A stretch of DNA of 64,000 nt from Candidatus Izemoplasmatales bacterium (GTDB lineage: Bacteria; Bacillota_I; Bacilli_A; Izemoplasmatales; Hujiaoplasmataceae), in NCBI GenBank assembly GCA_050949045.1, contig JBMNEZ010000001.1, positions 108,716 through 172,715 on the forward strand. Reading direction: 5' to 3'. The position numbers and the translations under genes are program-made. Each line of letters starts with the position of its first letter. The first letter of the stretch is position 1. Shown here piece by piece: positions 1 to 60,597 of this stretch. A model generated the notes under the pieces. That model did not search any database and was not told where the DNA came from. It worked only from the letters and a program-made list of their open reading frames with translations.

Positions 1-3000
1 CTGTGTTTTTCTCTTTTGCTTCTAGGAGCGGGGAGCGTATATGCGACAGTATACAATCACCATTTCTATGGCGAAGACTGGACATGGAGTCCTTCTGCTA
101 AAAGTGCTGAAGAAGCCAAGGCCAATGCAATTAAGGTTGCAGAGCAAATCGCTGCTGAAGGCCAGGTACTTTTAAAGAATGAGAATAGTACCTTGCCTCT
201 TAGTGGAGATGAATGGCTGACTGTTTTTTCTACTACCAGCACAAAAGATTTAGCTTCTTACATTTCCGGTATAGAGGCTGGAGGCTTTAAGGTACACAGT
301 ACGACCTCAACCGATGTAAGCAAGTACACTCCAAGCGATATGCGCGCACATAGTTCCAGCGATGTAGCTGTAATTATTATGAGTGGAGAAGCTGAATCAA
401 AAGGCGATTTCTTTAGTCCTGGTCCTTTTGGTGGCGGTGGTGGAGAAGGCGGATCTACAGCTAGCCTTGTCGAACCGGAAGACAATAAGGATGCTTATGG
501 CAATACTTACAAGCTTCCTAGCGGAAAAGATTTCGTACACAGGTTTTCTCCGATGAAAAAGGTAGGAGAAGAGACAGTAGCATACAAACACAGTTTACAA
601 CTTCAAAACAAAGATGAAGAAATTATTAAGTATGCTAAAGACAATTTTAAAACAGTCATTGTTTTGCTTCAAAACGATATACCTACCGAAATCGGCTCGC
701 TTAAAATTGATCCTGGCATTGATGCCATTCTACTCGCGGGGCGTTTAGGAAATTACGGACATGAGCAAATAGGCTATGTTTTAAACGGCTCAGTTAACCC
801 CTCTGGGAGAACGGTAGACCTTTGGGCATGGGATCATTCAGGGCGTCCTTCTTGGTTCAACGACGGGAATACTAACAATATTTTCAGAAATGCAACTCAA
901 GAAAGCGAATCAGATGTTTCGAATATGGGAATCACATCAGCGTTCCGTGTTGGTGAAGGATCTATATATTATGAGAGATCAGAGGCGTATTCTAAAGCCG
1001 ATGATGAAACATATCCATATTATAAGAGAAGACCGCACGCTACAGGTGAAATTACTCCTCACGTATTTACTGTGCAGTATGAAGAGGATATTTACACTGG
1101 ATACCGTTACTATGAAACCGCCGCAACAGAGGTAGCTTTGGGCAATTATGCCGCAGCTGGTTACGGCATCGACGGCGAAGCTTTTTATTACGATTCGGTT
1201 ATCTATCCTTTCGGTTACGGGCTCAGTTATACCTCATTTGAATGGGAAGTAGTGAGTTCAGACCTTAGCGAATGGGCCAGAGTTTTGGCTTCTGAAAGCT
1301 CAAGCATCAATTTCCAAACCGGCGAAATAACCGTTAAGGTAAAAGTTACCAACGTTGGTTTGGTACCGGGCAAGGACGTAGTGGAAATTTACGGACACGC
1401 ACCATATTACAAGAATGGTGTTTCTAAAGCGGAACACGTACTTGTAGGCTTTGAAAAAACTGGAATAATCCAGCCTGGTAAATCGCAGGTAGTTACTGTT
1501 TCTGTAAACGTTCAAGATCTTGCTTCGTATGATTACCTTGATGCTAACGGAAACGGCAACACAGGCTATGAGCTTGATAAAGTCGCAGATGCCGACTCAA
1601 AAGGCAACCCCTTACATGATAGCACTGGTAAATACCAGCTCCGTCTCATGAAAAACAGCCATGAATATGGCAATGACGATGCGGCTGAAATGACGATTGA
1701 TCTTGCTAGCCCTTCGAGAGATTATTTCCTTAAACTCGATGACTTCACAGGAAACAGCGTCGACAATTTGTTCTCCGGAAAAGACATAAACAACACACTC
1801 GGATATGATCCAGGGACAGGTAAAACGCTGGTTGAAGAAGGCAAAATGACGATCCTAACCCGTGCAGATTTTGCAGGAACTTGGCCTCAGGCTGCGGGAA
1901 CCACCACAGGTCCTAGCGGCGAAGAAAAAGGCTGGGATCTCGTAAGAAGCGACGAATATTACACTATGATTTCTGAGTTCGCTGATTACAACGGAGAAAA
2001 TTGGCAAGAGTTTTATAAGATAGTAAATAACGTAGAAACAATTCCTGCTGAAATAACAAATGAAGATAAAGCCGGTTTTGCTTGGTCTATTGACGCAGCA
2101 GAATTTGCAACGCTTACAACGGCTAAATACACACCTGAAGGCGGCACAGAACAAACAATTAATTGGGTACAAAGAGACCCAGCTGCCAATCTTTCTGAAC
2201 TTCAAGAAAGCGATGATTGGCTGTGGTTTGCTGACATGATCAAGTATGAGTACAATGACGGTGGTATTGGCACATACATGTGGACCAAGTTTATGAACCA
2301 GCTGACCTACAACGAGATGGTAGAATGGGTTACTAACGGTGGCAGAAGGACATCGGCCATTGATTCAGTAGGTAAGAGAGCGGCGGAATATGTGGACTCC
2401 AGTATAAGAATGGGAGGCACAAACCAAATTAGTTATGGTTATAATTCTGTTTCTAGCCGCACTTGGAATAAGGAACTTGCAAAGAAGAGAGGCATATGCA
2501 TCGGCGAAACTGCTCTCTTTGATGGAAAAGAGGCATGGTATGCACCGGCATGCGACTTACACCGTAGCCCGTTTGCAGGTCGTAACGACGAGTATTGGTC
2601 AGAAGACGGTTTCTTCTCAGGCTGGATGGCAGGCAGCGTGCTTGCGGGCACTCAGTCCACAGGAGTAATTTGTACCATCAAGCACTTTGCTCTCAATGAA
2701 AGCGAGAACATGAGACAAAGCTTACATACATACCTTTCTGAACAAACTTTCCGTGAGCTGTATCTACCCGCATTCAAAATTTGTATGCAAGAATGCGGTG
2801 CACAAGGTGTAATGACTGCATATAACTGTATTGGTGATATGCACGCATCTTCAGCTTACAATTTCCTTGTTGGTATGACCGAAAAAGAATGGGGCTTCGA
2901 CGGCTTCAATATTTGTGACGCTGCCGATCCTTGGAAAGACTTCTACACTCATGACATGAGTCTCCGCTCAGGCGGGACGATGTTCCTATGCGATTGGAGA

Positions 3001-4152
3001 GCATCCAAAGAATATACTCCCGGTGATAAAGGGAACCTTGTTCAACTTTATCCTACTGGTGTATATAACGTAACTGATAACAAAGTCTATGTTAGAGAAA
3101 ACGGTCAAGTAAAAGATTCTCCTGTAACGGTAGAATCATACACCAGCTGGTATTGGCTGCGATATCAAGTAATGCGTTCACTGTTTGTGGAAGCAAACAG
3201 CAATATCGCCAATAACGGCCTTAAACTTGACAACTTCAAGGATGCTACCTTGGCTGATGGAGCACAAGCGGTGGCCTATACAGCTAATATTGGGCTTGAA
3301 GGCGCAGATGCTTCTATTAGTACTTACACAGTAACTAGCGGCGCATTACCCAAAGGCTTATCAATTTCTAACGCCGGTGCGGTTACAGGCACTCCCACCG
3401 AAGCAGGCGAGTTCACATTTAAGGTTAAATTCGTAAACGGATACTGGATTACAAAAGAAGCTACTTTCAATTTAACTGTGACCCCTTGCTTTACGATTGG
3501 TAGCGAAACTGAATTGAACGCTTTAGAAGTTGGCGCTGCTTTTGAAGGCTATATTGAATCAGAAGTAATTAAGATTGATGATACCTATACTTCCATAACA
3601 TATGAACTTGCTCAAGGAAGCGCACTGCCCGAAGGGCTTACACTTTCAAAAACCGACGGCTTGATTTCGGGTACGCCTACGGTTCCGGGAACTTATAGTG
3701 TTACGTTTAATATAACACCTAAAAAAGCATCATCCGGCGGTGGTGGCGGCGGCTTCCCATGGGGTCCACGTCCAGGCAGCAGTTCAACTGTTTACAATTA
3801 CACGGTCACTTTCGTTGTAACCGGAGATCCAATTGTTGAACCTAGCGGTCCCTTCTTCAGAATTGTTGATGGATTTGTTGAATATTCTGAAGATAACGAA
3901 ACTTGGGTACAAGTAATTGAGGTATCCGAACTGCAAGGCGACAAGGGCGACAAGGGCGACAAGGGCGATAAAGGTGACAAGGGCGACAAGGGCGATGCTG
4001 GCGCAGCTGGTCCTGCCGGTCCTGCCGGTCCTGCTGGAAAAGATGCAGAACCGGTAAGCGGATGCGGAAGCTCGCTAACCGGAACCGGAATCCTCGTTAC
4101 CGGATTGCTGTCTCTCGGAGTACTATTCTTAAAACGCAGGAAGTCTGATTAA
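1..4152 (+). CDS. Giant secreted GH3-family glycosidase A (5'-partial): permuted GH3 core, 2 He_PIG-type Ig domains, collagen-like stalk, Cys-containing C-terminal sorting signal
   Basis: Frame 1 is open from nt 1 (LCFSLLLLGAGSVYA/T looks like the end of a signal peptide), so the real start lies upstream and the track's TTG at 16 is internal. GH3 motifs occur in reversed order. First LLKNENSTLPL and NPSGRT (alpha/beta-sandwich domain). Then [12 protein letters not shown] and GKDVVEIY (Fn3-like). Then HRSPFAGRNDEYWSEDG, KHFALNESE and WGFDGFNICDA (barrel domain). Two LP.GL...G.(V/I)(T/S)GTPT units, (G-X-Y)12, and the terminus PVSGCGSS + TM + KRRKSD. Confidence 0.85.
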   Translation: MCFSLLLLGAGSVYATVYNHHFYGEDWTWSPSAKSAEEAKANAIKVAEQIAAEGQVLLKNENSTLPLSGDEWLTVFSTTSTKDLASYISGIEAGGFKVHSTTSTDVSKYTPSDMRAHSSSDVAVIIMSGEAESKGDFFSPGPFGGGGGEGGSTASLVEPEDNKDAYGNTYKLPSGKDFVHRFSPMKKVGEETVAYKHSLQLQNKDEEIIKYAKDNFKTVIVLLQNDIPTEIGSLKIDPGIDAILLAGRLGNYGHEQIGYVLNGSVNPSGRTVDLWAWDHSGRPSWFNDGNTNNIFRNATQESESDVSNMGITSAFRVGEGSIYYERSEAYSKADDETYPYYKRRPHATGEITPHVFTVQYEEDIYTGYRYYETAATEVALGNYAAAGYGIDGEAFYYDSVIYPFGYGLSYTSFEWEVVSSDLSEWARVLASESSSINFQTGEITVKVKVTNVGLVPGKDVVEIYGHAPYYKNGVSKAEHVLVGFEKTGIIQPGKSQVVTVSVNVQDLASYDYLDANGNGNTGYELDKVADADSKGNPLHDSTGKYQLRLMKNSHEYGNDDAAEMTIDLASPSRDYFLKLDDFTGNSVDNLFSGKDINNTLGYDPGTGKTLVEEGKMTILTRADFAGTWPQAAGTTTGPSGEEKGWDLVRSDEYYTMISEFADYNGENWQEFYKIVNNVETIPAEITNEDKAGFAWSIDAAEFATLTTAKYTPEGGTEQTINWVQRDPAANLSELQESDDWLWFADMIKYEYNDGGIGTYMWTKFMNQLTYNEMVEWVTNGGRRTSAIDSVGKRAAEYVDSSIRMGGTNQISYGYNSVSSRTWNKELAKKRGICIGETALFDGKEAWYAPACDLHRSPFAGRNDEYWSEDGFFSGWMAGSVLAGTQSTGVICTIKHFALNESENMRQSLHTYLSEQTFRELYLPAFKICMQECGAQGVMTAYNCIGDMHASSAYNFLVGMTEKEWGFDGFNICDAADPWKDFYTHDMSLRSGGTMFLCDWRASKEYTPGDKGNLVQLYPTGVYNVTDNKVYVRENGQVKDSPVTVESYTSWYWLRYQVMRSLFVEANSNIANNGLKLDNFKDATLADGAQAVAYTANIGLEGADASISTYTVTSGALPKGLSISNAGAVTGTPTEAGEFTFKVKFVNGYWITKEATFNLTVTPCFTIGSETELNALEVGAAFEGYIESEVIKIDDTYTSITYELAQGSALPEGLTLSKTDGLISGTPTVPGTYSVTFNITPKKASSGGGGGGFPWGPRPGSSSTVYNYTVTFVVTGDPIVEPSGPFFRIVDGFVEYSEDNETWVQVIEVSELQGDKGDKGDKGDKGDKGDKGDAGAAGPAGPAGPAGKDAEPVSGCGSSLTGTGILVTGLLSLGVLFLKRRKSD
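3937..4044 (+). repeat. Collagen-like (G-X-Y)12 tract; first six triplets are a 9-bp GGCGACAAG-type tandem repeat
   Basis: In-frame [36 protein letters not shown] read directly from the sequence. Confidence 0.9.
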
Positions 4153-4283
4153 CAAAAGAAACAAGCAATAAAGATTTTAAGACAATAGAAAGAATCAATT
4201 AAGCAGGCGGATATGTTGGGATTATTCTTTAATGCGCGGTAAAATATCGTTGTGATAAAGAATATCCCAACATTATCCGTTAT
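3967..4283. repeat. Arm A of a 317-bp near-identical inverted repeat (partner 21825-22141)
   Basis: The reverse complement of 21825-22141 aligns base for base (x+y=26108). I found 2 substitutions by eye. The repeat covers the last collagen triplets, the sorting signal, the stop codon and 131 bp of intergenic DNA including a hairpin. Confidence 0.9.
4213..4273 (+). promoter_or_regulatory. Intercistronic stem-loop (18-19 bp stem, 24-nt loop) between giant GH3 A and its lipoprotein gene; possible partial terminator or RNA-stability element
   Basis: ATGTTGGGATTATTCTTTA (4213-4231) pairs with TAAAGAATATCCCAACAT (4256-4273) with one bulged T. There is no clean T-tract after it. Confidence 0.45.
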
Positions 4284-4311
4284 TGTCAAATATTTGGAGT
4301 AAGTGTAAATA
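4283..4311 (+). promoter_or_regulatory. Candidate sigma-A promoter for lipoprotein A / GH3 A'
   Basis: TTGTCA, 17-nt spacer, TAAATA, located ~70 nt upstream of the ATG at 4380. Confidence 0.3.
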
Positions 4312-4379
4312 TTGTTTGAAAAAGCATTATTATGTTTGTATGCGACTATGTAAACGACAAAATAAATGTGAGGAAATCT

Positions 4380-5810: not shown

Positions 5811-5826
5811 TTGAGGAGAAGTGCTA

Positions 5827-8769
5827 ATGATTTTTAAACGCTTATTAGAAAAAAAACCATCGCGTTTTTGGTTTATATTCACGGTTATTATCAGCGTATT
5901 AATGATTGCAATCAATGCTGTCGCCATTTATTGGAGCGGTATAATCAGCATTGCATTACGCGGTGATATAGCGCACAAGGCGGAAAATGCCGAGGATGCA
6001 GTGGTGTATTACGAAAAAAGCACCTCAAGCAAGGATGAAGCTAATGCCCAAGCGCAAAGCATTACGCAAAGGATTGCCGAAGAGGGCTTTATTTTGTTGA
6101 AAAACGACAACGCCTTGCCTTTGAAAAAATCTGCGCAAGTGTCCGTCTTTGGCAAAAACTCTGTTAATCTCGTTTATGGCGGCTCGGGCTCGGGTGGTGG
6201 CGACGCTACGCTTCCAAAAAAGACGCTTTATGAAAGTCTTACATCACAGGGGATTGTTTTTAATCCAGTACTGAAAGCGTTTTACGAGGATAACACTCTA
6301 TCGGGACCCGGTAGAGAAAGTAATTCCGGCGACTTAGACAGTGGCGATACAGTCACTATTGGAACTGGAGAAACGCCACAAAGCAGTTATACCAACACTG
6401 TCAAGAACAGTTATGCAGATTATGCGGACGCGGCCATTGTCGTTTTTTCAAGAGTTGGCGGCGAAGGCTTTGATTTGCCTATGGTAGGCGCCAACGGCGC
6501 AAGGCATTATCTTGATTTAGATACAAATGAAAGAGACTTGCTTGAAAGTGTTTGTGCATCTGACTTTGAACATGTAATTGTTGTTCTCAACACTTTAAAC
6601 ATAATGGAAACAGGCTTTTTAAATGAATATGACGGAAAAATAGATGCCTGTATTTGGATTGGAGGACCAGGTTCAACAGGGATTATGGCCTTGGGGAGAA
6701 TACTTGACGGTACTGTTACTCCTTCAGGCCATACAACCAACACATGGCCCTATGATTTTAAAAAAGATCCTACTTGGAATAATTTTTCTGAAAGAGGAAT
6801 ATCAAAAGGTGACATCTATTTTAACACCGAAACGAACAAAAACACAGCGTATAACTACGTAAATTATGAAGAAGGAATTTATGTCGGTTATCGTTATTAT
6901 GAGACGCGCGCTGCACAGGAACGTGAAAAAAACGGAAACGATAATTGGTATATAGAAAACGTTGCATTTCCATTCGGTTATGGGTTAAGTTACACCACTT
7001 TTAAATGGGAATTGACAAATAGTCAAAGCATAGATGGTGTTAAAATAAATAAGAATGGAAATTACTCAGTAACAGTCAATGTAATTAATACAGGTTCTTA
7101 TAAGGGCAAGGAAGTAGTTCAAATGTATGCAAAACTTCCTTATACAGCAAATGGTGTAGAGAAACCTTATGTGGTTTTGTGCGGTTATGCAAAAACAGAT
7201 ATGCTGTACCCTACCGCTGAAAAAGCAATTAATGCAGAAGAGGCAGCGGGAAATAAAAAGCCAAATTCCCAAAAAATCACGATCACGTTTTCGCCTTATG
7301 ATATCGCTTCTTACGATTACAGCAAAAAAAGCGGTCACGAAGGATACATAATTGAAAGTGGTGCTTATGAGCTCTTGTTGTGCAGCGATGCACACACAAG
7401 CAAGTTTTCTGTGCCGTTTAGTGTCGAAGATGACATTGTTTACGAAAACGATCCCATAACAAATACAAGAGTAGTCAACAGATACACCAATTGCGCAGAC
7501 AGTGCTTTCAATTCGGATACGATGATTGCGGACTTCCAAATGAGCAGAAATGACTTATCTATCCTACCGGATGCGTATCAGGACGCCGACAGACAAGTTA
7601 CAACTGAGTTTATCAACTTAATTGCAGACTTAACGCATAATAATCCAAACGCCGCCGGTATTACTGAAATGCCTAAACAAGGTAAGGTTGCAACAATGGA
7701 TTTGGCGGGAGTGTTACAATATGACGCGGCAACCCAGACTTACTACGCAAACTACGATGACAATGCGAGTTGGGATGTTATTCTAGATGCTGTTTCTATC
7801 AACTCCATGCTAAATATGTATAACACCGCTGCATTTAAAACTAACAAGATCGATAACATTAACAAGCCTCAGACACTCGAATCCGACGGACCTGTGGGAT
7901 GGTGTAATTTCATTTCGCTTACTGATCCAACTTGGAAAGGAAACAATGTTTATACCTCACAGGTTGTTATGTCCGCAACATGGAATGTCGATTTAATCGA
8001 GGAAATGGGCAAATGCGTAGGGGAAGAAGGCTTATGGGGCGCAGTTAACTCCGATGGTCGCCCTTACAGCGGCTGGTATGCGCCTGGAGTGAATATCCAT
8101 CGCTCGCAATTTGGCGGTAGAAACTTTGAGTATTTTTCTGAAGATAGCTATTTGACAGGCACAATGGGCGCAGCGGAAATAAAAGGCTGCCAGTCAAAGG
8201 GCGTTTATTGCTATGTGAAGCATTTTGCGGTAAACGAACAGGAAACTCATCGAATGGGGGCCTGCAACTGGCTTACCGAGCAGGCTTTGCGTGAACTGTA
8301 TCTAAAACCGTTTGAGATAGTGGTCAAGCAGGGAAAAACAAGAGCCATGATGTCCAGCTTTACACGTATAGGAACAAGATGGACAGGCGGAGATTATAGG
8401 CTTTTGACAGAGATATTACGTGACGAATGGGGATTTAGAGGCACAGTTATTTGCGATTACAATGCGACAAGCAATTTTATGAATTGTAGACAAATGGTAT
8501 ATGCAGGCGGAGATTTAAATCTTTGTTCCTCCATTAGTAAGCAATGGAATGACTTTGACAGTACATCTGCCGTAGATGTAACAATGTTGAGAAACGCAAC
8601 AAAAAATGTGCTCTATACTGTGGCCAACTCAAACGCTATGAATAGTCTAAGCTATTATTACACGCTCGCTACATGGAAGATTTGCCTTATTGTGGCAGAT
8701 GTTTTGACTGTGTTGGGTCTTGCAGTATGGGGAATTCTAGCCATTCGCAAATCACGTAAAATGCTTTAA
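5827..8769 (+). CDS. Doubly membrane-anchored (N- and C-terminal TM) permuted GH3 glycosidase A'
   Basis: I prefer the ATG at 5827 (GAGGAG 8 nt upstream) over the track's GTG at 5821. N-terminal TM FWFIFTVIISVLMIAINAVAIYW. Motif order: LLKNDNALPL, VGGEGFDL, TPSGHT, then [12 protein letters not shown] and GKEVVQMY, then SDGPVGW, HRSQFGGRNFEYFSEDS, KHFAVNEQETHR, WGFRGTVICDYN. C-terminal TWKICLIVADVLTVLGLAVWGILAIRKSRKML. Confidence 0.85.
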   Translation: MIFKRLLEKKPSRFWFIFTVIISVLMIAINAVAIYWSGIISIALRGDIAHKAENAEDAVVYYEKSTSSKDEANAQAQSITQRIAEEGFILLKNDNALPLKKSAQVSVFGKNSVNLVYGGSGSGGGDATLPKKTLYESLTSQGIVFNPVLKAFYEDNTLSGPGRESNSGDLDSGDTVTIGTGETPQSSYTNTVKNSYADYADAAIVVFSRVGGEGFDLPMVGANGARHYLDLDTNERDLLESVCASDFEHVIVVLNTLNIMETGFLNEYDGKIDACIWIGGPGSTGIMALGRILDGTVTPSGHTTNTWPYDFKKDPTWNNFSERGISKGDIYFNTETNKNTAYNYVNYEEGIYVGYRYYETRAAQEREKNGNDNWYIENVAFPFGYGLSYTTFKWELTNSQSIDGVKINKNGNYSVTVNVINTGSYKGKEVVQMYAKLPYTANGVEKPYVVLCGYAKTDMLYPTAEKAINAEEAAGNKKPNSQKITITFSPYDIASYDYSKKSGHEGYIIESGAYELLLCSDAHTSKFSVPFSVEDDIVYENDPITNTRVVNRYTNCADSAFNSDTMIADFQMSRNDLSILPDAYQDADRQVTTEFINLIADLTHNNPNAAGITEMPKQGKVATMDLAGVLQYDAATQTYYANYDDNASWDVILDAVSINSMLNMYNTAAFKTNKIDNINKPQTLESDGPVGWCNFISLTDPTWKGNNVYTSQVVMSATWNVDLIEEMGKCVGEEGLWGAVNSDGRPYSGWYAPGVNIHRSQFGGRNFEYFSEDSYLTGTMGAAEIKGCQSKGVYCYVKHFAVNEQETHRMGACNWLTEQALRELYLKPFEIVVKQGKTRAMMSSFTRIGTRWTGGDYRLLTEILRDEWGFRGTVICDYNATSNFMNCRQMVYAGGDLNLCSSISKQWNDFDSTSAVDVTMLRNATKNVLYTVANSNAMNSLSYYYTLATWKICLIVADVLTVLGLAVWGILAIRKSRKML

Positions 8770-8950: not shown

Positions 8951-8981
8951 ATAAAGCCCTCCCGATTAAGGAGGGCTTTAT
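8951..8981 (+). terminator. Stem-loop downstream of GH3 A'
   Basis: ATAAAGCCCTCC, loop cgattaa, GGAGGGCTTTAT (12-bp GC-rich stem). The downstream T-tract is weak. Confidence 0.5.
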
Positions 8982-12242: not shown

Positions 12243-13046
12243 ATGGCAAACTTGATTAAACACAAGAAAATCTTGATAATTCTCACATCATTATTCATTT
12301 TGGTGATCCTGGCGAGCCAATTTTTGCGATTGACGTTCTTTACCGATGATCTGACAAAGAAAATGGCCAATGATATTTCTATTAGGCTGGGCATGGGATT
12401 GATATTCTTGTTTATGATGTATTACATGGGGTATTGTCTTTTCAAAAAACCCGGGAAATCGTGGATACAATTACTTTTTGTTTTGATTCCGGGTTTATTA
12501 ATATCCATAAACAACTTTCCGATAAGCGCTTATTTGTCATCGCGAACCACTTTAACCGAGCCAATCCATACTGTCTTTTTTTATGCGGTTGAGTGTTTGG
12601 CAATCGGCTTTTTTGAAGAAACGGTTTTTCGAGGAGTTATTCTGTTGGTTTTGTTACAGAGGTTGCCGCAAACCAAGCGCGGAAGTTTCATGGCGATCAT
12701 TGTTTCCTCGGCTCTTTTCGGCTTGACTCATCTTTTCAATTTGTTTGTTGGGGCGGCAGTTCCAGACACGTTGATTCAAGTGGGATATTCTTTTTTGATG
12801 GGGGCTATGTGGAGTGTGATATATATTGCGACAGAAAACTTGCTGTTCCCCATCCTGCTTCATGCATCCTACAACTTTTTCGGAGAGGTGTTGTTTCGCC
12901 TGGGAACCGTATCAAACCGGTTTGATTTTCCGACCATACTGGTCACTTCCATTTTGGCAGTTTTGGCAATCATGGCATATTCGCTTGTTTTCTGTAAAAT
13001 CAAACAAGAGGATCTTGCCAATATCGGCGCAAGCGATTCCCGGTAA
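12243..13046 (+). CDS. CPBP-family (CAAX/Rce1-like, Abi) glutamic intramembrane endopeptidase
   Basis: All three signature motifs occur in order inside TM helices: FEETVFRG (EExxxR), FGLTHL (FxxxH) and HASYNF (HxxxN). About 7-8 predicted TM segments. GGAGGAAG ribosome-binding site. Confidence 0.85.
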   Translation: MANLIKHKKILIILTSLFILVILASQFLRLTFFTDDLTKKMANDISIRLGMGLIFLFMMYYMGYCLFKKPGKSWIQLLFVLIPGLLISINNFPISAYLSSRTTLTEPIHTVFFYAVECLAIGFFEETVFRGVILLVLLQRLPQTKRGSFMAIIVSSALFGLTHLFNLFVGAAVPDTLIQVGYSFLMGAMWSVIYIATENLLFPILLHASYNFFGEVLFRLGTVSNRFDFPTILVTSILAVLAIMAYSLVFCKIKQEDLANIGASDSR

Positions 13047-16015: not shown

Positions 16016-19000
16016 TTATGATTTAACCTTGAAAATGTTTTTTCTCTTATCGAGATCGCTCAATACGTACATGGCGGCGCTAATTACAGTAAGAACAATG
16101 AATACAACTGTCAGCGCAGTTATTATGACTTTCCACCACACGGCAACAGGCTGTAGGCGTGTAAGGTTTGAATAACCATCCATGGAGGCACTGTAATTTG
16201 CCACAACGAAGAGCAACCGGTGCATGGATTCTCTGAGATTGATATTGAATGAGGGGCTGTTTCTCAAGTCGCTGGTGAAGCCGCTCAAAGTGCCTTTATC
16301 TAAGAAACAATCCGTTCCGTTCATGAAGCCGTCGTCATACACCATGAACAGCTTCCCGTTGGAACCGGCCATATCGGTAAGGGTGTACCCGTCGAAAGCC
16401 CACTCATCTCGAAGAATGTTCATCATAAGATTGTCGTTTGCACTTGTCCATAAACAGCCGGCACGATTAAATGATGTCATAATCGCATGAGAATTACCCA
16501 TATCTGGACGAAGCGCATATTCCCAGGGCAACAGATATATTTCCCTTGCGGCCTGCTCATTCATCCAAATGCAGATGCCATTGCGATTTGTCTCCTCGTC
16601 ATTAAAGATGAAATGCTTTGGATGGGCGACAACGCCTTGTCGCTGCATTGCCAGAATTTCGTATACGGCGGCGATGCCGCTCAAGAATGGATCTTCGGAA
16701 TAATATTCTGAAGCTCTCCCTCCGAATGCAACCCGATGCATATTCAATCCGGGAGCGTAAAGTCCGTGAAGATGTTTTTGCGATGGGTCGTGACCGCTTC
16801 GGCCATCTGCCGCAATCGCTTCGCCGACCTTATCGTAAATCTCCAAACTGAATGTTGATGCGATAATTCCTTCACAACTCATTGAAGAATATCCTTCAGC
16901 TGTGTTGCTGATGCCGTAAGGGCCGTCATCTTCATCGGTCATCGGTTTTGCCACGCTTGCAAGAGCAGGTGTAAAACCGTAACAGTTCGTCAGAGTAATA
17001 AACATGTCTTCCTGTGATATCTTATTTAAGAGCAGATCCCATTTAGGATCCGTATACGGCAATCCCGCCATCATCGCAAGGGTCAAGTTGGAACTCAAGT
17101 CATTGAAAGTAGGCATGACAGCGTTATTGTATTCAACGATGGTCTTGTGGCTTGTGATATCGTATTTTTCTTCCACCATGTTGGTCAAAGAAAGGGTCGT
17201 CACCCCCGAGGGCAGCGTGCCCAACCAATTATTGCGTGATACATAGACAACGTCACCGTTTTCGGCGGCCTCATTAGTAACACCGGAGAAGCGGTTGGGA
17301 TCCATATAATCAAGTTGATTGGTAATCTTTGTTTCAACCGCAGTATCGCTGAGCGTATTGGGGGTTGATGCCGATTTTGCCGTGGACTTGGAAAACACCT
17401 CGGAGTCAACGTTTGCTTGAGAAAGCACCAGTTTTACCAAATTGTCATCTCCGTCGGCGTCCATATTGCTGTTTGCTTTAGTATAACCTTTTGCGGCCAA
17501 AATATTATTGACGGCATCGTGCGAGTCCTTCGCTACGGTGAGATAATAATCTCCTTCATTAAGAATGTATGTTTGTGCATTCTGTGAATCATACATTCTG
17601 AACTGCTCGAAGGCTACCCTCATCCGCTCCATATTCATTTTATCGGTTACTGTTGCGCTAAGAGTCTCACTCGCTCCGGGTTGAAGCAGGCTTGTTTTTC
17701 CAAAACCGACAAGTTCAACAGAAGGGACCTCAATCCCAAACATGCGTGCATAATCGGAATATGGTTTTTGCAGGTATATTTGCACCACTTCTTTGCCGGC
17801 TTTGGCGCCGGTGTTTGTCACGGTGACGCTCACATTGAAGGCAGTGGTTTTATTGTTTTCATCCTTCTCCTCTGTGACAGTCAAGTCGCTGAATGCAAAA
17901 TCGGTATACGACAAGCCATACCCAAAGGGATAAGCAACATCTTGATAATAATCGTATTCGCCCACGCCGGCAGTCACCATGACATAGTCTTCATAGCGAG
18001 TCTCATAGTAACGGTAGCCTACATAGACGCCTTCTACATAAACGCCGTAGTACATTTGCGAACTATTTAGCTGTAACGCCTCTGAATTTGCGTATTCTGA
18101 GGAAAAACCGTCGTTTTCTCGCCAATACATCGCTGCGGGAGAAGAAAAAGTATCCATTAAATAAGTGTCCGAAAGTTTGCCAGAAGGATTTATTTCTCCA
18201 ATCAGCGCTTTTGCGACAGCATTCATACCGGTTGCTCCGGGAAGGCCTATCCATATCGCTGCGTCAATGTCATAGTTGTCGTCAAATAGAAAATCACATT
18301 GAACGGTAACCGCTGAATTAATCAAAACGATGATTTTGTCGATCTCGCCTTTACTCTTTTTTTCAGCCAGTTGCTCTAAAATGCCAAGTTCGTTAGAAGT
18401 AAGCGTTAAATAACTACCGTCAATGCCGTCACTATCTTTCCAGGAAATGTCAACACCTTCCCCGCTTTCACGGGTGATAACGGCTATGACCGTTCCGCCA
18501 TGACTGGTATATTCATCGCTTATTCCTGCCAACTTGTATGTATTCCAAGAAGGTTCATCGGTTTTGAAAACGCCACCTTTGATACCGCGTTTGGTCTGAC
18601 CTTCACCGGTTGCCAAAAAGTTAAATATTTTGTCATTTACATTAAGATTGGTTTCTTCTTTAAGAGCTGTGTAAAGGTCAATAAGTTCACCTTGACGGCG
18701 AACCCCCGGGCCGTGTGTGGCATAGAAAATCTTACCGGCGCCGCTGATGGCAAAGGAAACATTTGAAGTTGGGTCGAGAGGCAGAGCGTTATTGTCGTTC
18801 TTTAATAGGACCAATCCCTCTGCTTGCACCTCTTCGTTAACGGCACGATAATACTCTTCGATATCCTCGGCGGTTTTAAAGAGCGGCCAACTGATGAATT
18901 TTTCAACTTCTCCCGCCTTAGGCTTTTCTTTGACTTCGATATAGTCTACCGTTCCCAAAAAAGAACTTATTTCGTTGTTAAACGGGACGATTGCGGCATT

Positions 19001-19090
19001 GACAACAAGCATCACCATCACAAGTGAGGCAAATGTGACAAATAATGTTTCCCATAGTTTCTTAATCAACAATTTTTTAAATGTTTTCAT
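16016..19090 (-). CDS. Doubly membrane-anchored permuted GH3 glycosidase B'
   Basis: I moved the start to MKTFKKLLIKKLWETLFVTFASLVMVMLVV. That ATG is 1 nt after the stop of the upstream 178-aa ORF. Motif order: LLKNDNNALPL, NPSGKLS, then [12 protein letters not shown] and GKEVVQIY, then HRVAFGGRASEYYSEDP, KHFIFNDEETNRN, WAFDGYTLTDMAG. C-terminal VWWKVIITALTVVFIVLTVISAAMYVL + DKRK. Confidence 0.85.
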   Translation of the reverse strand: MKTFKKLLIKKLWETLFVTFASLVMVMLVVNAAIVPFNNEISSFLGTVDYIEVKEKPKAGEVEKFISWPLFKTAEDIEEYYRAVNEEVQAEGLVLLKNDNNALPLDPTSNVSFAISGAGKIFYATHGPGVRRQGELIDLYTALKEETNLNVNDKIFNFLATGEGQTKRGIKGGVFKTDEPSWNTYKLAGISDEYTSHGGTVIAVITRESGEGVDISWKDSDGIDGSYLTLTSNELGILEQLAEKKSKGEIDKIIVLINSAVTVQCDFLFDDNYDIDAAIWIGLPGATGMNAVAKALIGEINPSGKLSDTYLMDTFSSPAAMYWRENDGFSSEYANSEALQLNSSQMYYGVYVEGVYVGYRYYETRYEDYVMVTAGVGEYDYYQDVAYPFGYGLSYTDFAFSDLTVTEEKDENNKTTAFNVSVTVTNTGAKAGKEVVQIYLQKPYSDYARMFGIEVPSVELVGFGKTSLLQPGASETLSATVTDKMNMERMRVAFEQFRMYDSQNAQTYILNEGDYYLTVAKDSHDAVNNILAAKGYTKANSNMDADGDDNLVKLVLSQANVDSEVFSKSTAKSASTPNTLSDTAVETKITNQLDYMDPNRFSGVTNEAAENGDVVYVSRNNWLGTLPSGVTTLSLTNMVEEKYDITSHKTIVEYNNAVMPTFNDLSSNLTLAMMAGLPYTDPKWDLLLNKISQEDMFITLTNCYGFTPALASVAKPMTDEDDGPYGISNTAEGYSSMSCEGIIASTFSLEIYDKVGEAIAADGRSGHDPSQKHLHGLYAPGLNMHRVAFGGRASEYYSEDPFLSGIAAVYEILAMQRQGVVAHPKHFIFNDEETNRNGICIWMNEQAAREIYLLPWEYALRPDMGNSHAIMTSFNRAGCLWTSANDNLMMNILRDEWAFDGYTLTDMAGSNGKLFMVYDDGFMNGTDCFLDKGTLSGFTSDLRNSPSFNINLRESMHRLLFVVANYSASMDGYSNLTRLQPVAVWWKVIITALTVVFIVLTVISAAMYVLSDLDKRKNIFKVKS

Positions 19091-19091
19091 A

Positions 19092-19628
19092 TTAATCTCC
19101 CATTGCCCCGGCATCTGTTTGCTGATGGTTTTTCGCTTTATCAGTTTTGTAATAGCTGGATTTCTGAATCAAAGCAACAATCAATGTGACTATTATCGCC
19201 ACAAAGGTGCCTATCAGTTTGAAAAAATAACTGCTTGAAAGAACAGGATCCACAGGATCGCCCACAGTGCCCGATACGATTGGATAAAGAATTGTGCCTA
19301 TAAGCGAATATTCGGCGAGTATGCTCATAAAGAAACTGTATATCAGCGCGACAAAGGCGAAATACATGAGAAAACGTTTATAACTCAAGATATCTAAAAT
19401 CATGGGGTTATTAACAAGAAAACTCTCGCCAACGCTTGCGCCGATGGCAATCATAATAAATATGACTGCCAAGATGTCCGCCGCCACGACCTCGCGAGAA
19501 ACGTTTCCGCCGTTAAATTCCGAAGCGCAGTTCAGTGCATACAAGAATAGTGCAACAACCGCAAGCACCAGCGCCAGAACGGATAGATAAAAACTCGTTT
19601 GTTTATAGAACATTTTGATTTTATTCAT
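19092..19628 (-). CDS. Small 4-TM membrane protein of unknown function (module B only)
   Basis: AGGGAGAG ribosome-binding site. Four hydrophobic helices. Stop and start are almost contiguous with GH3 B'. I recognise no family. Confidence 0.55.
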   Translation of the reverse strand: MNKIKMFYKQTSFYLSVLALVLAVVALFLYALNCASEFNGGNVSREVVAADILAVIFIMIAIGASVGESFLVNNPMILDILSYKRFLMYFAFVALIYSFFMSILAEYSLIGTILYPIVSGTVGDPVDPVLSSSYFFKLIGTFVAIIVTLIVALIQKSSYYKTDKAKNHQQTDAGAMGD

Positions 19629-21824: not shown

Positions 21825-22141
21825 TTAACGGATAATGTTGGGATATTCTTTATCACAACGATATTTTACCGCGCATTAAAGAATAATCCCAACATATCCG
21901 CCTGCTTAATTGATTCTTTCTATTGTCTTAAAATCTTTATTGCTTGTTTCTTTTGTTAATCAGACTTCCTGCGTTTTAAGAATAGTACTCCGAGAGACAG
22001 CAATCCGGTAACGAGGATTCCGGTTCCGGTTAGCGAGCTTCCGCATCCGCTTATCGGTTCTGCATCTTTTCCAGCAGGACCGGCAGGACCGGCAGGACCA
22101 GCTGCACCAGCATCGCCCTTGTCGCCCTTGTCACCTTTATC
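21825..22141. repeat. Arm B of the 317-bp inverted repeat (partner 3967-4283)
   Basis: See arm A. Confidence 0.9.
21835..21895 (-). promoter_or_regulatory. Intercistronic stem-loop, identical copy of 4213-4273
   Basis: Same sequence as the module A hairpin, lying inside the inverted repeat. Confidence 0.45.
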
Positions 22142-25100
22142 ACCTTTAGCACCAGGATCACCCTTAGCACCAGGATCTCCCTTAGCACCAGGATCACCCT
22201 TAGCACCAGGATCGCCCTTGGCACCAGGATCGCCCTTAGCACCAGGATCGCCCTTTTCGCCGGCAGGGCCAGCTGGGCCTTCAATGACACCAAGATTAAC
22301 AACAGTGCCGTCTGAGAAGGTTACGAGCAATTCGCCTTCGTCGTTAATTTCCGTGGAAGCGATGCTGCCGTGTCCTACGACGATGGTGTATTCAGCGGAG
22401 CCTTTAATCCATCTATCAAATATTCCTTGTACGGTCACGGTGAAGGTTCCGATTTCGTCTGTGCTTCCAGTGATGATGCCTGTTTTTCTGTTCAATGCCA
22501 AACCTTCAGGCAGCATTCCGGAGGTAATTTGATAATCAAATATCGTTGCTTTATCTTTGGCGCCCGCAAAGCCAACATCAAGACTGACTGTTTCTTTCGC
22601 ATCGACGATGAATTTGCCGGGAGTCCATTGAGATACGATGATACCGTTTTGAGAATGACCTGCATTTGCATATTCGCTATACATGATCATGGCGCTGTAG
22701 CGAACAATGTACCATTGGTTATTGGAATAGTAAATGTCCTGCGTAGTATCCTGAGTTAGCGCTTCAGCTTCTGCAGGAACGAATTCACCGGCTGCGTGAG
22801 CCGCAATAAACCTATAATAACTTACACTGGTTTCTCCTGTAATCTTAACAAGATCGTTGATATTATAGGCTTTGGTAACGTCGAATTCTTCAAATCTGGA
22901 TGCATCCTCACCACCAAGTGTTTTTCTTCCAATATAGACGCCGCCAAGCGAGCCGGTAAGCTCATTGACATATTCCGGATCCCAACGGCCTGAATAGGTG
23001 TTGTTTGCCGGGGTGCCCAGGTTGGTCGTGTTGTTTCCGCCAGGAGCGTGGTTGTGGCCAGTGCGAAGCATCAGGTCTTCAGAAGCGACATTGGCTTGTG
23101 GCGAGTACATATCGGGATGGAAGAAGAAGTTTGGACGGCCCCATTCCTCGCGTACAAGGATGTTGCACATATTGAAGCTCACCGGGGTAGGAACTGAACC
23201 GATACGGCCAAACGCCGACATCGCACCTTCGCTATTGCCTTCTTGAATCGCAATTTGCCATGGCTTCAAGTAGATTTCTCGCAGTGCCTGTTCTGAAACC
23301 CAAGCAAAGAGGTCACCCGAGTTACGATTGGTTTCTTGGTCGTTCAAGAGCATGTGTTTCAAGTGGCTTGTTACGCCGCGATCTTGAATGCCCTTGACAA
23401 CTGCCTGAGCCATCCAGCCGGCATGGAAACCATCTTGTGAATAGTACTCGTTGTTACGACCTGAGAAAGGAGTCCGATGGAAGTTGATAGCCGGATTGAG
23501 CCATTGTGTTCTCTTGGTGTTCGTATTCAAGTTCTTTAGCAGGCCCATGTTGGCAGTGACTGCCCCTTGTTTGTAGCCAAGCTCAAGATTCCAGGTTGCT
23601 CCGATTGTCGCATTGCAGCACCAGGTGTATGTACCGTTAAAGTTAGTCGGGGAGTCAGCAATACCGCCAGTGGGAATTCCGAGGTTGGGAACAGGGTTAC
23701 CATTGTTACCGCCACTCCAGCAAGCTGTATAGAAGTCGTTCCATGTCCACTGGTTCATGAACTTAAGCCAGACTTGTCTGCCCGTCATGCCGGCAAACTT
23801 GCCTTTGGCGATCATGCTGTCGTCATTGAAAACAATGCCGTTTAACTCACCAAACAGGATCCAATCATCGCCCGCAGCTTCTTTTGCCAAAGCTTGATAA
23901 TCGGTATTTCCTACTTTGTTGGGAATTTGACTCCATCCCTCCATCATGGCGGCAGTAACGTCATAAAGTCCCGCTTGATTGCCAAGATAGCCGTTTAGAC
24001 CTGCATCGCCTATAAATAATTTATCAGAGTATACATAATCACCGGTGTTGGTCTTCGTCTGTAACTCCGCTTCCATCACATCAGCGATATAAGAGGCATG
24101 AGTTACTTCTTCAACGTTGGCATCTTCGCCTGTTTTGATAAGTCTCATCGAAGCTGAGAAGTTTTGGCAATTTGTTCTGGTGTTGAAGGAAGCGCCCACT
24201 GCAATCGCCGCTGTGACTCTGACATTGTTGGTTGTTTCGCCGCCCCAACGAGTCGATTTGTATGTTACAAAGTCGCCTACTTCATAAGCTTGAGTGGCAA
24301 TTCCGTTTGCGATCGGGCCGTTGTCTTTAAAGACAATCGTAGCGATAGTTTTGATGACTTTGTAAATTCTATTACTGTCTACCAGATAAGAATTTAGTGG
24401 AAAATCGCCGTCCACTGAAATTGGTGGAATAGCCTCGGTGTCCTTTGTGGCTTTATAAACCGCTTTACTATCTTCCACTCCAAACTCATCATTAGTTTTA
24501 TAAGCAGTTGATGTGGAGAAGTAAGCATACTCAGGCTTCCATTGATTCAGATCATAATTGTGATAATAATCCATCAAATCCGCAAATGCCTTCGTGACGA
24601 TCAAGCCACCGTCAAAGACGCCGGACAGTGTATCGACTTCCGCTTCATTAAATGGTCCCGCAGCATGATTTGCTTTAAACTTGTAATAACTTACATTAGA
24701 TGTTCCTGTCACTCCAGGTGTTACTGTGGTTATTTTGACAACATCGCCGATCACATAGGCTTTTGTAATGTCGAATTCCGAAAAGCTGGAAACAGGAACG
24801 CCGTCAACCGTGGTGACGGGAGCTTTTGGGAATGTCTGGACCATGTCAGATCTGGAAAGCAACTCTTGTTCTTTACTGAACAACTTGTCGTCATCATCAA
24901 TTACGCCGTCGCCGTTCCAATCCACATCATTATTGCGGAGAGAATTGCTTCTGCCGTTTTCTTTCGAGAAAAGGTTCACAATTTCATTGTCGGAAAAGTC
25001 GTCAAGTGCAAGTTTCGCATCGCCGTTGATTGTCAAAGTAATTTTTGCCGTAGCATTTGTGCAATGCGAGGTGTTGGAGGCAAACAGATTGTATACTCCG

Positions 25101-26566
25101 CCTTCCAACTCAAAGCCCTTGAATCCGTTGCTATTCGCATCGGCATAATCATAAGAAGCCATATCTTGCAAATTAACATCGAGTTTCATAATCTGAAATT
25201 CGCCAGGATTGAGAAGATTTGTCTTTGCATAGGCAACCAGATTTACGGAAGCTTTTTCGATTTCTCCTCTTGTATAAGGAGCCTGTGAATAGATTTCCAC
25301 TACTTCTTTGCCTGCCTCATCACCAGTATTCGTCACTTTGACGATCAGAGAAACCGTCTTAATCTTGGCAGGCGAGAATAATGAAGAACTGATATCCGCT
25401 TCATCAAGTTCACTGTGTGTGATCGACAAGATTTCCGTATTAAAGCTGGCATAAGACAAACCATAGCCGAATGGATAGACGACATTGTCGGCATACCATG
25501 CGTCTGCCTGGGCTAAGCCGCCCGGCGAGCCGGCTTTACTCAATACGCCGTCGACATAATTCAGGTTTCCAGCCAGAATTTCCGCGTAAACGGTCTCATA
25601 ATACTTGTATCCGATATAGATATCTTCGGAATAATCCACACCATGCAGAGAAATCGGGACCGGTTGGCTGCCGTCTTCTCTTAAATATTTGTTGCTGCCA
25701 GCATCATTTTGAACGTTCGCAATGGAGTTGTACCAAGTTGGATCGAGCGAAAAGTCTTTTGGCCACACGTCAACGAGTTTGCCAGAGGGGTTCCACTCGC
25801 CGCTTAACAATTTTGGAATCGCCTTGATCCCATTTGCGCCGGGACGTCCGATATACATAATCGCATCCACTTTATTGTCATTATGAAGATTGTACATCTC
25901 CATTGGAGTGGATGTATTAAGAAGAACGACGACTTTGTCGCAGAGAGCCGCGGCCTTATCGATCATAGCAATTTCCTTTGCTGTAAGCATCAGGAAGTGT
26001 TTGAGATCGTTACCGTCTGAGTTTCTAGCCAAGCGTTTATGTTGCCAACCGCCGATGTTTTCTACTGCATCATTGGCAAGTTCGCTTGTTGCTACAGCAA
26101 GGTCTGATCCTTCACCGCCACCGCGTTTGAGAACCACAACTGCCACATCAGCGAATCCTTCAACATCTTTTGAGGCTGCCCCTGCAGCAGCATCCTCATT
26201 GATCAGAGTTGGATTCACCTCAAACCCATCGGCATCAAGCACGTCGATTACTTTATGGCTACCGCCCTGTAAAGAAGCTGCCGCAGCACCGAATACCGTT
26301 ACGCCTTTGGCTTTGCTAAAAGGCAAGGCGTTATCTTTGTTCTTGAGCAGAACAGAGCCTTCTCCGGTAAGTTGAATATTCAATTCTGCAGCTGCGGCAG
26401 TAGCTTCGTCCTGCGTCTCATAGGTGGGAATCGCAATCCCGCCGTTGGCAGCGTAGGCACGAGAGCCGCTAAACAGGTATGCTGATACCGCAGTCGCAAG
26501 CGCCAAAGTCAAAACCAGCATACATTTTCCAAGTATAAACCCGTTGTTTTTGCTTCTTCCTTTCAT
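21956..26566 (-). CDS. Giant secreted GH3-family glycosidase B (1536 aa): permuted GH3 core with large inserts, He_PIG domain, collagen-like stalk, Cys-containing C-terminal sorting signal
   Basis: AGGAGG ribosome-binding site. Signal peptide ...[11 protein letters not shown]. Motif order: [26 protein letters not shown], then [12 protein letters not shown] and GKEVVEIY, then [18 protein letters not shown] and [31 protein letters not shown], (G-X-Y)24, and the terminus PISGCGSS + TM + KRRKSD. Confidence 0.85.
22064..22279 (-). repeat. Collagen-like (G-X-Y)24 tract including 6 x 18-bp GDPGAK repeats
   Basis: GPAGPAGEK(GDPGAK)x6 [27 protein letters not shown] read in frame on the minus strand. 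Confidence 0.9.
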
Positions 26567-46658: not shown

Positions 46659-46758
46659 CTAGGACAGTCGATTTTTCTTTATTCAGTATTAAATTTAGGT
46701 TAAATATATAATATAAATTTGACAATATTTTCCAATGATTTACAGAGGGGGAAAAAAG

Positions 46759-59598: not shown

Positions 59599-59643
59599 TC
59601 AATTTCGTGGAATTTCTTCGATGAACACGAAAATGATTCTCAT
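59599..59643 (-). pseudogene. 14-codon vestige of a LytTR response-regulator 5' end immediately after lgt
   Basis: ATGAGAATCATTTTCGTGTTCATCGAAGAAATTCC... (MRIIFVFIEEIPRN*) aligns with the RR2 start ATGAGAATCAAGGTCGCAATCGTCGAAGACAATCC (MRIKVAIVEDNP). It has the same ATGA overlap with the lgt stop as seen at 55542-55545. Confidence 0.6.
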
Positions 59644-60455
59644 TGTTCACTTTTAGAAATAGGCAAGTCAGTTGCCTTCTTGTTTGTTTTTGCTTTGCAT
59701 AGCAAAATGATGCCAGTTATCATGAGTAAGAAACTCAAATACTGTGAAGGGGTTGGAAAAACATTGTGTTCAGTGGTGATGAAGCCAAAGATACTGCCGC
59801 GGTCGTCTCCGCGGATCAGTTCCAACAATATCCTCCAGCCGCCGTAGGCGATAAGATATGTTTCCAGTTGATAACCCCTCAAGCATTTGAGATTGGCAAG
59901 CACGAAAAACAAAACGAACAGAAATAACGCTTCGAACAACTGAACCGGAAAGAGAGGAATTCCAGGAAAGGCATCATGAGCATGGCCGTGGGGAAAGACC
60001 ACACCGAGAAAGGAATCAGTCGGAATTCCGTAACAACAGCCGGCTAGGAAACAACCGATCCGACCAAAGGCATGCGCAAGGACAACACCGATGATCACAG
60101 TGTCCATAATGCTTTTTATGCCTCTGTTATCAGCTTTATAGACGAACTTCAAGAGAACAAGCAAACAGGCGACGCCGCCGATAAGGCCACCGAGGAAAGA
60201 GATCGTTCCGAAAGACCACTTGCCCTCTTTGATGGAATGGAATATCCCATCGAACAAGAATGAGGAGAACAAAGCGAATAACAAAGAGACAATAAGCAAC
60301 ACCAATAGTTTATTGGATTGCTTTCTATTCAGCCCGTCATGATTCTCGAGTCTTCTGGCAACGAAAACGAGCATTAACAATACTCCCACACAAATCATCA
60401 AGTCATATAGAGGAATAGTATAGCCGAACACTTCCGGCAACAAGAATGGATACAT
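59640..60455 (-). CDS. lgt: Prolipoprotein diacylglyceryl transferase
   Basis: I moved the start to MYPFLLPEVFGY (AAGGAGGGG 4 nt upstream). Lgt-type blocks GRIGCFLAGCCYG, FPVQLFEA and YGGWRILLELIRGD. Confidence 0.8.
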   Translation of the reverse strand: MYPFLLPEVFGYTIPLYDLMICVGVLLMLVFVARRLENHDGLNRKQSNKLLVLLIVSLLFALFSSFLFDGIFHSIKEGKWSFGTISFLGGLIGGVACLLVLLKFVYKADNRGIKSIMDTVIIGVVLAHAFGRIGCFLAGCCYGIPTDSFLGVVFPHGHAHDAFPGIPLFPVQLFEALFLFVLFFVLANLKCLRGYQLETYLIAYGGWRILLELIRGDDRGSIFGFITTEHNVFPTPSQYLSFLLMITGIILLCKAKTNKKATDLPISKSEQ

Positions 60456-60597
60456 GGGACCCCTCCTTATCAAATATTGTATCATTTGTTGGCATATTCA
60501 CGCACTCTCTTTAATGAATTAGGTATGAAAATATTGTTTGAGAAGGATTTTCATCATCTCATCGACAGAATCAATATAGATGTATGATAAAATATAA

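Follow-up and report, generated by a model that had tools for sequence, protein, structure and literature searches.

The window analyzed here, a stretch of 64,000 nucleotides from Candidatus Izemoplasmatales bacterium (contig JBMNEZ010000001.1), encodes three giant enzymes of glycoside hydrolase family 3 (GH3), giants A, B, and C, each of which ends in a short segment, referred to here as the GC-tail, that carries a Gly-Cys motif followed by a hydrophobic helix and a basic end (Table 1). The GH3 portion of all three giants is circularly permuted, with the domain order C-domain, Fn3-like, N-domain, and in giants A and B a collagen-like GXY stalk lies ahead of the tail. N-terminal Sec signal peptides can be read from the sequences of giants B and C, and they predict a type I topology in which the basic tail would be cytoplasmic. 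The giants belong to a gene triad that is found three times in the window (16-8769; 16016-26566; 39577-49716) and is made up of one giant GH3 with a GC-tail, an N-terminal lipoprotein that combines Flg_new repeats with a CBM-like C-terminal part, and a GH3 enzyme of approximately 1000 residues with plain N-/C-terminal transmembrane (TM) anchors; the order of this triad is kept in three further loci (L005, L040, and L080).

Translation of the open reading frames reproduced the tail sequences and coordinates given in an earlier reading made from the letters of the window alone (the sequence-only reading), and the tripartite layout with an invariant Cys described there was found in the tails of A, B, and C and in their relatives. 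It has to be noted that the tails of A and B are not independent of each other. Giants A and B share 31-33% protein identity over their catalytic domains; their DNA is 99.2% identical over the last 120 nt and 95.5% identical over the last 200 nt, and the DNA identity of stalk and tail together (window positions 3950-4152 vs 21956-22160) is 95-99%, the two giants being inverted paralogues 18 kb apart. This stalk-and-tail module was recently copied between the two giants by gene conversion, so that the identity of the tails is not independent conservation and the window holds two independent instances of the tail, not three. A hidden Markov model (HMM) trained on 135 tails from other organisms and on none from the window was run on all window open reading frames of at least 100 residues and matched exactly three C-termini, namely those of giants A and B (29.5 bits, E 2e-9) and, with a lower score, that of giant C (15.6 bits, E 5e-5), a TGCAAL tail resembling the latter being present in another locus (L095). 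The same model gave no match to the window GH3 enzymes with plain C-terminal TM anchors (5821..8769, 16016..19114, and 46735..49716).

Table 1. Giant enzymes, GC-tails, and candidate processing enzymes of the window
Feature	Position	Strand	Description
Giant A	16..4152	+	Permuted GH3 (C-domain, Fn3-like, N-domain), He_PIG Ig domains, collagen-like stalk, GC-tail; N-terminus beyond window edge
Giant B	21956..26566	-	Sec signal peptide, permuted GH3, He_PIG, collagen-like stalk (22061-22282), GC-tail
Giant C	39577..44775	+	Sec signal peptide, permuted GH3, eight He_PIG repeats, GC-tail
GC-tail of giant A	4045..4149	+	AEPVSGC (Cys codon 4063-4065) GSS, helix, basic end KRRKSD
GC-tail of giant B	21959..22063	-	Tail of A with V->I; Cys codon 22043-22045
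Divergent GC-tail of giant C	44668..44772	+	APITGC (Cys codon 44683-44685) ASAL, helix, RKRQ; C-terminus APITGCASALTVSTIIMTLLTSMVAGVFIFIRKRQ
Collagen-like GXY stalk of giant A (GDK/GPA repeats)	3931..4050	+	PF01391; directly before tail A
Candidate processing protease, CPBP/Rce1-like intramembrane glutamic endopeptidase	12243..13046	+	EExxFR, FxxxH, HxxxN motifs intact
Candidate lipid transferase, divergent Lgt-family protein	59640..60485	-	Signature GRIGCFLAGCCYG vs E. coli Lgt GRLGNFINGELWG

The tail is not confined to the three paralogues of the window; such confinement had been named in the sequence-only reading as a finding that would refute its proposal. When a profile of 62 tails was compared with 1.84 billion (1.84e9) representative proteins at E<=1e-3, it retrieved 361 representative clusters (best E 2e-8) that include many unrelated proteins. 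The GC motif lies within the last 48 residues in 143 of the 146 newly retrieved top matches, and in almost all 146 the match ends at the C-terminus or a few residues short of it, a position that the profile does not force. The carriers are mutually unrelated (CE2/GDSL esterase, CBM_X2, Flg_new, Big_3, glucodextranase-B/cadherin-like, and He_PIG proteins), range in size from fragments up to 1,674 residues and, where full-length, mostly have signal peptides; several unrelated GC-tail genes can occur in one locus, e.g. two in L006 and three in L167. The pattern by which sorting signals of this kind are recognized is present: secreted proteins end in a Cys motif, a TM helix, and a basic cluster, and the tail is carried by many unrelated proteins, several per locus, in a limited range of lineages.

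Giant B as query retrieved 120 homologues; of those with a name, the nearest is from an Acholeplasmataceae metagenome-assembled genome (MAG) at 66% identity and others are from Bacilli, Clostridia, and Candidatus Coproplasma MAGs. A Cys-containing tail is present in 67 of these, a plain TM helix with a basic end in 25, and no tail in 28, with LPXTG tails in none. In other lineages the homologous giants thus have a plain anchor or nothing at this end but never LPXTG, which fits a role of the tail in membrane anchoring. Scanning genomes with the GH3 alignment yielded 76 loci of named assemblies (78 loci and 1.5 Mb with L006 and L007 added), the hosts of the 76 being uncultured gut or rumen Bacillota save for one cultured Pseudoflavonifractor; GC-tail open reading frames were present in 30 of the 78 loci, and a pattern scan of the 1.5 Mb found no LPXTG tail. 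The tail was found on both contigs of RGIG4442 and on none of the six contigs of Lachnospiraceae RGIG5021, and its use appears to be lineage-consistent. Word-indexed searches yielded no candidates with an alignment of the three window tails alone and just four short proteins with a 137-tail alignment, and none of the 36 pattern matches of a tail-only genome scan was confirmed by tblastn. Taken together, the tails are probably a modular sorting signal of uncultured Bacillota, comprising Acholeplasmatales-like Bacilli, Christensenellales-like Clostridia, and Erysipelotrichaceae, and it is highly likely that this signal is real, modular, widespread, and previously undescribed.

Position statistics over 148 distinct tails show that Gly at -1 and Cys at 0 are the sole invariant positions. 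The Cys stands 28-38 residues before the C-terminus and is followed by a conserved [GSN]-[GS]-[SATV]-[IVL], the helix, and a K/R cluster; the residues ahead of the Gly-Cys pair vary (G/S/K at -2, K/E/G/S/A at -3, and E/A/D/P at -4, with Pro in the minority), and Gly occupies position -2 in 64 and position +2 in 81 of the tails. The form of the family, as deduced from the alignment, would be [GSK]-G-C-[GSN]-[GS]-[SATV]-[IVL], a helix of approximately 20 residues, and a K/R cluster. The signature P-[VI]-[ST]-G-C-[GA]-S that had been proposed from the window is accordingly too narrow and describes its own lineage only. The idea that [VI]-[ST]-G-C represents a textbook lipobox holds for the residues of the three window tails, which fit [LVI][ASTVI][GAS]C, and fails for the family, in which positions -3 and -2 are unconserved; the site also lies at the C-terminus and before the helix, so that the tail does not qualify as a lipobox. 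Sub-variants of the motif occur as well, such as G-C-F-G-[SD] in L040 (9887-13300) and L080 (5474-12669), both loci with a nearby Lgt-like gene, and GGGCETK in L046 (9947-14056), and this suggests lineage-specific co-evolution of the signal and its enzyme.

None of the models in NCBIfam release 20 and Pfam covers the GC-tail, and the literature search turned up no description of a Cys-type signal in Bacillota, returning only the myxosortase papers and those on LnsAB; Haft's paper on signals of the Cys-containing kind makes no mention of Firmicutes, Bacillota, or Mollicutes. HMM scans of the tails bore out the earlier statement that the signal is not LPXTG, PEP-CTERM, GlyGly-CTERM, or PGF-CTERM, and no existing sorting-domain model claims it. 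The commonest NCBIfam matches of the 62 tails are weak ones to Rumino_NPXTG and LPXTG_anchor. The latter model (TIGR01167) has a cut-off of 15.9 bits and scores many tails at 15.3-18.5, mostly over its profile positions 9-34, which correspond to the helix and the basic part; several of ten chosen consensus-like tails barely exceed this cut-off although they lack an LPXTG motif, and the window tails reach only sub-threshold scores, again through the helix and basic part. The MYXO-CTERM model (TIGR03901.2) matches 7 of the 62 tails weakly and is passed by one of the ten consensus-like tails; a minority of tails align with it end to end, the best reaching 26.9 bits (cut-off 20). TIGR03901 gives no match to the window tails, which score 13.1 bits against the 15.85 cut-off of GC_trans_RRR (TIGR03382). 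The Synerg-CTERM model found 2 of the 62 tails at E 0.48 and the JDVT-CTERM model 4 of 62 at E>=0.2. Membership in MYXO-, Synerg-, JDVT-, CGP-, Firmicu-, PEP-, or Loki-CTERM was rejected, as the matches were sporadic and sub-threshold.

The architecture of the GC-tail is nevertheless shared with the published tripartite Cys signals (MYXO-, Synerg-, CGP-, and JDVT-CTERM), among which the sequence-only reading had correctly placed it. As in MYXO-CTERM, the Cys is preceded by Gly within a Gly/Ser-rich motif and followed by a helix and a basic cluster, and the mechanism proposed for both is alike, with lipidation of the Cys preceding cleavage by a protease of the CPBP family. MYXO-CTERM, however, has a GCGC double Cys and an Arg-rich cluster, whereas the GC-tails lack GCGC and are Lys-rich (KKRKED), and it is restricted to Myxococcota/Bradymonadales, whereas the GC-tail occurs in Bacillota, monoderm or wall-less, where no type II secretion step is involved. 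Synerg-, JDVT-, and CGP-CTERM, which belong to other phyla, resemble the GC-tail in being Cys-containing tripartite signals that comparative genomics has tied to CPBP proteases (MrtS, MrtJ, and MrtA, respectively). They differ from it in that Synerg-CTERM (TIGR04564) has an invariant Pro in a Leu-rich helix and no spacer after the Cys, while the window helices have no Pro; JDVT-CTERM (NF033191) has a near-invariant DP before a Leu-rich helix and a single substrate beside MrtJ, while the window tails have no DP; and CGP-CTERM, of Thermococcales, has an invariant Gly-Pro after the Cys, where the window tails have C-G-S or C-A-S and the family as a whole has G or S at +2.

Beyond this class, the N-terminal lipoprotein pathway likewise relies on a membrane helix with Gly/Ala/Ser-Cys at its outer end and on an Lgt-family transferase, which is the candidate here, but the GC-tail is its mirror image, with the Cys before the helix at the C-terminus, its candidate protease is a CPBP protein and not Lsp, and its candidate transferase has none of the E. 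coli Lgt residues N146, E151, and H103. CAAX processing in eukaryotes and archaea, by a prenyl transferase and Rce1, also couples lipidation of a Cys near the C-terminus with CPBP-family cleavage after that Cys; there, however, the lipid is a prenyl group and three residues are removed, whereas the GC-tail would lose approximately 30 residues including a TM helix on the extracytoplasmic side, and its lipid would probably be diacylglycerol. The LPXTG/sortase A system has the same tripartite layout and a similar cargo, namely large enzymes of the cell surface and stalks of the collagen-like type seen in Scl proteins, but the GC-tail has an invariant Cys in place of LPXTG, and its anchoring probably involves lipid and not peptidoglycan. 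On these comparisons, the GC-tail would be a variant within the known class of Cys-containing tripartite signals, and, within the libraries searched, the first from Bacillota.

In the scheme favored here, the N-terminal signal peptide would drive Sec export, and the C-terminal helix and basic tail would act as a stop-transfer anchor that leaves the Cys at the outer membrane face, as can be read from the sequences. An Lgt-family transferase would then lipidate the thiol of the invariant Cys, following which a CPBP intramembrane glutamic protease would cleave just after the modified residue and free the helix and tail, leaving the mature enzyme held at the cell surface by its C-terminal lipidated Cys. 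This is the two-step proposal for MYXO-CTERM and myxosortase set in monoderm or wall-less bacteria that have no outer membrane or type II secretion. The mirror-image lipoprotein mechanism advanced in the sequence-only reading is thus not new, as Lgt-like lipidation of the Cys followed by CPBP cleavage is the published working model for MYXO-CTERM (PMC11980579; Haft preprint). Cleavage of MYXO-CTERM by the myxosortase MrtX has been demonstrated experimentally, depends on the Cys, and also occurs in E. coli, while the transferase is not yet named, Lgt being the leading candidate of the authors (PMC11980579). From this analogy and from the gene linkage described below, the odds that GC-tail proteins are processed by Cys lipidation and helix removal appear evenly poised, and much the same can be said of the explanation as a whole, in which the undescribed signal is combined with this scheme.

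The window contains a candidate for each of the two enzymatic steps (Table 1). The CPBP protein scores 66.4 bits against PF02517 (cut-off 22.4), and alignments show that the catalytic motifs are kept in all CPBPs compared; it differs from the myxosortase MrtX (NF040914) in reaching only 23 bits against the 100-bit Mrt_core cut-off, and it scores 28 bits against MrtJ (cut-off 75). It resembles MroQ weakly, and the Lgt-adjacent CPBPs have MrtS and MrtJ among their highest-scoring NCBIfam matches, weak as these are. The Lgt-like protein scores 115 bits against Pfam PF01790 (cut-off 24.9) and falls below both NCBIfam Lgt equivalog cut-offs (118 vs 334 bits and 71 vs 118.9 bits). Relative to the E. 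coli reference (signature G142-RLGNFINGELW-G154 plus H103 and E151), it carries N146->C, N149->A, E151->C, and H103->L and retains Y26, R143, G154, R239, and E243; in the E. coli enzyme, substitutions at H103 or E151 are inactivating, and E151 contacts the phosphatidylglycerol head group. Lgt proteins of this GCC type, with GRIGCFL[AG]GCC[YFHW]G in place of the canonical GRxGNFxNxExxG, abound in metagenomes, with at least 565 matches in one scan; they lack H103 and E151, and their donor or acceptor specificity may differ.

Linkage between these genes and the tail is seen in L040, an Erysipelotrichaceae MAG in which the Lgt-like gene (8144-8920) and the CPBP gene (8907-9659) share 14 nt and a GC-tail GH3 (9887-13300, C-terminus ...GGGCFGSIATAS...KKKKED) follows 227 nt downstream of the CPBP gene on the same strand, succeeded in turn by a lipoprotein and a TM-anchored GH3, as in the triad of the window. 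At the contig end in L080 lies an Lgt-like gene, preceded by two GC-tail GH3 genes and the triad, and in L095 an unrelated protein of 641 residues that ends in DTGCAAL, a helix, and KRKY is encoded 99 nt upstream of an Lgt-like gene. The CPBP gene lies directly beside the Lgt-like gene in L085, L094, and L106, with surroundings that differ each time. The L085 pair is 57% (Lgt-like) and 50% (CPBP) identical to the window proteins, the window CPBP being a likely orthologue, by sequence comparison, of the one directly after the Lgt-like gene there, and the pairwise divergences of the two proteins correlate (r=0.88). The cluster in L040 and the pairs in the other three loci amount to circumstantial genetic support for the mechanism.

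A number of observations weigh against this reading. The lipidation and cleavage of GC-tail proteins are inferred, and giant C matches the tail profile only weakly (15.6 bits). The CPBPs stay far under every Mrt-family cut-off, and the Lgt-like and CPBP genes of the window are 46 kb apart. An Lgt-like gene is present in 3 of ~34 GC-tail regions vs none of ~45 control regions, a difference that is not significant (Fisher p ~0.08), and most GC-tail genes have neither an Lgt-like nor a CPBP gene within 10 kb. A metagenome scan with the Lgt-like alignment gave 80 loci, all of the GCC type since the scan pattern selected for the GCC signature, and among the ~50 Lgt-like metagenome loci with enough flank just 3 have an adjacent CPBP gene. 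The GCC-type Lgt may also be a housekeeping enzyme for the ordinary N-terminal lipoproteins, which the window encodes as well, and by the precedent of LnsB the Lgt/CPBP pair could belong to the ordinary lipoprotein pathway. Conserved synteny of CPBP with GC-tail genes was considered and rejected, as only one other CPBP occurs in the 76 GH3 loci; the syntenic locus L005, from a genome of 1.63 Mb, has no CPBP within 10 kb, and the neighborhoods of GC-tail proteins other than GH3 are sugar-utilization loci with no LGT or CPBP. A link between Lgt and CPBP was not found in the literature beyond the myxosortase papers and LnsAB. The assignment of the Lgt-like/CPBP pair as the GC-tail machinery is therefore put forward as tentative, with the balance somewhat against it. 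The further proposal that the GCC-type Lgt and the CPBP form a dedicated "C-terminal lipoprotein" pathway of monoderm or wall-less Bacillota, which would yield diacylglyceryl-Cys-anchored enzymes and, through the pairing, name the missing transferase of the myxosortase class as a whole, is rather doubtful.

The alternative that survives best accepts the signal and regards the Lgt-like/CPBP pair as unrelated to it, the pair then serving ordinary lipoprotein maturation or the processing of peptide pheromones or bacteriocins, with the sorting enzyme encoded elsewhere. The precedent is LnsB, a CPBP relative that acts in the N-acylation of N-terminal lipoproteins in S. aureus (PMC7387801), although LnsB is without the catalytic motifs, every one of which is kept by the CPBPs considered here. 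The weak MroQ-likeness of the window CPBP, the presence of two agr-like LytTR systems in the window, and the weak statistical association with GC-tail loci point the same way, whereas the position of the pair directly before a GC-tail gene in L040 and the changes in the Lgt-like protein at two positions of canonical Lgt that the E. coli enzyme requires (H103->L and E151->C) argue for a connection. This alternative is a real possibility, although it falls short of an even chance.

It is also conceivable that the tail is a permanent, uncleaved type I anchor, in which G-C-G-G-S-I would be a juxtamembrane motif for S-acylation without cleavage, for a disulfide or thioether link, or for helix packing. 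Homologues from other lineages do have plain TM helices with basic tails in the same place, neighboring GH3 enzymes of the window are held by plain TM helices, and no processing enzyme is consistently linked to GC-tail genes. An invariant Gly-Cys at a fixed spacing on the extreme C-terminus of hundreds of unrelated proteins is, however, a hallmark of enzyme-recognized signals; all four known Cys-type tripartite signals are tied to cleaving CPBP enzymes, and L040 has Lgt-like, CPBP, and GC-tail substrate genes in one cluster. A permanent anchor thus seems unlikely, if far from negligible.

Cleavage of the rhomboid type, as by rhombosortase on GlyGly-CTERM, would join the new C-terminus to a lipid head group, with the Cys acting as a small-residue recognition element. 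Rhombosortase substrates are tripartite too, and the GC-tail motif is rich in small residues, often with Gly-Gly around the Cys, but a need for small residues leaves the invariance of the Cys unexplained. GlyGly-CTERM is absent from the 25 most-matched of the 44 NCBIfam families matched by the 62 tails, and none of the window proteins inspected stood out as rhomboid-like, no search having been aimed at rhomboids; this route is accordingly judged improbable. A wall-linked sortase substrate with a degenerate LPXTG (APITG in giant C, one position off, and EP[VI]SG in A and B) is the least credible alternative and was rejected, since the LPXTG_anchor scores, near or above the cut-off on many tails, come mostly from the helix and basic part and not the motif, Pro and Thr are unconserved in the family while the Cys after the Gly is invariant, no LPXTG tail came up in the pattern scan of 1.5 Mb of related loci, and the nearest named relatives are Acholeplasmataceae-like, a group that is wall-less in general.

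If the lipidation and cleavage scheme is correct, Cys-type signals processed by CPBP enzymes would extend from diderm bacteria and one archaeal order to monoderm or wall-less Bacillota. The hosts dominate poorly cultured gut and rumen communities, and the tail sits on their largest polysaccharide-degrading surface enzymes. The overlapping Lgt-like and CPBP genes, found once directly upstream of a substrate gene, offer a testable lead on which enzyme would lipidate the Cys ahead of myxosortase-type cleavage. There is also a practical consequence for annotation, as tails that score near the very low LPXTG_anchor cut-off risk being mislabeled as cell-wall-anchored, even where the nearest named relatives are wall-less, and a dedicated GC-tail HMM would correct this. 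A compact C-terminal lipid-anchoring tag of 35 residues could, moreover, serve for surface display.

Several other features of the window are worth recording. In one triad, a gene for a conserved multi-pass membrane protein of ~178 residues (19092-19628, minus strand) separates the lipoprotein from the TM-anchored GH3; the protein has no Pfam match and is syntenic in the 1.63 Mb relative (L005, 16737-17264). The two agr-like pairs of a LytTR response regulator and a HATPase_c_5 sensor (33964-35954 and 53483-55545) are embedded amid glycoside hydrolase genes, and a third such pair occupies a syntenic place in L005. A direct duplication of 2.5 kb with 98.7% identity (50900-53425 vs 56978-59507) contains a GH3 gene whose product lacks an obvious signal peptide at the N-terminus and has a C-terminal region that is basic and hydrophobic; a LytTR two-component system and a GT2 gene lie between the two copies. 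The Lgt-like gene is adjoined by this GT2 glycosyltransferase gene (55885-56922) and by a gene at 60598-61752 that we take, from its sequence, to encode UDP-galactopyranose mutase. The window reads with the standard genetic code, which, together with the mutase and GT2 genes, is compatible with an Acholeplasma-like organism that makes galactofuranose glycoconjugates.

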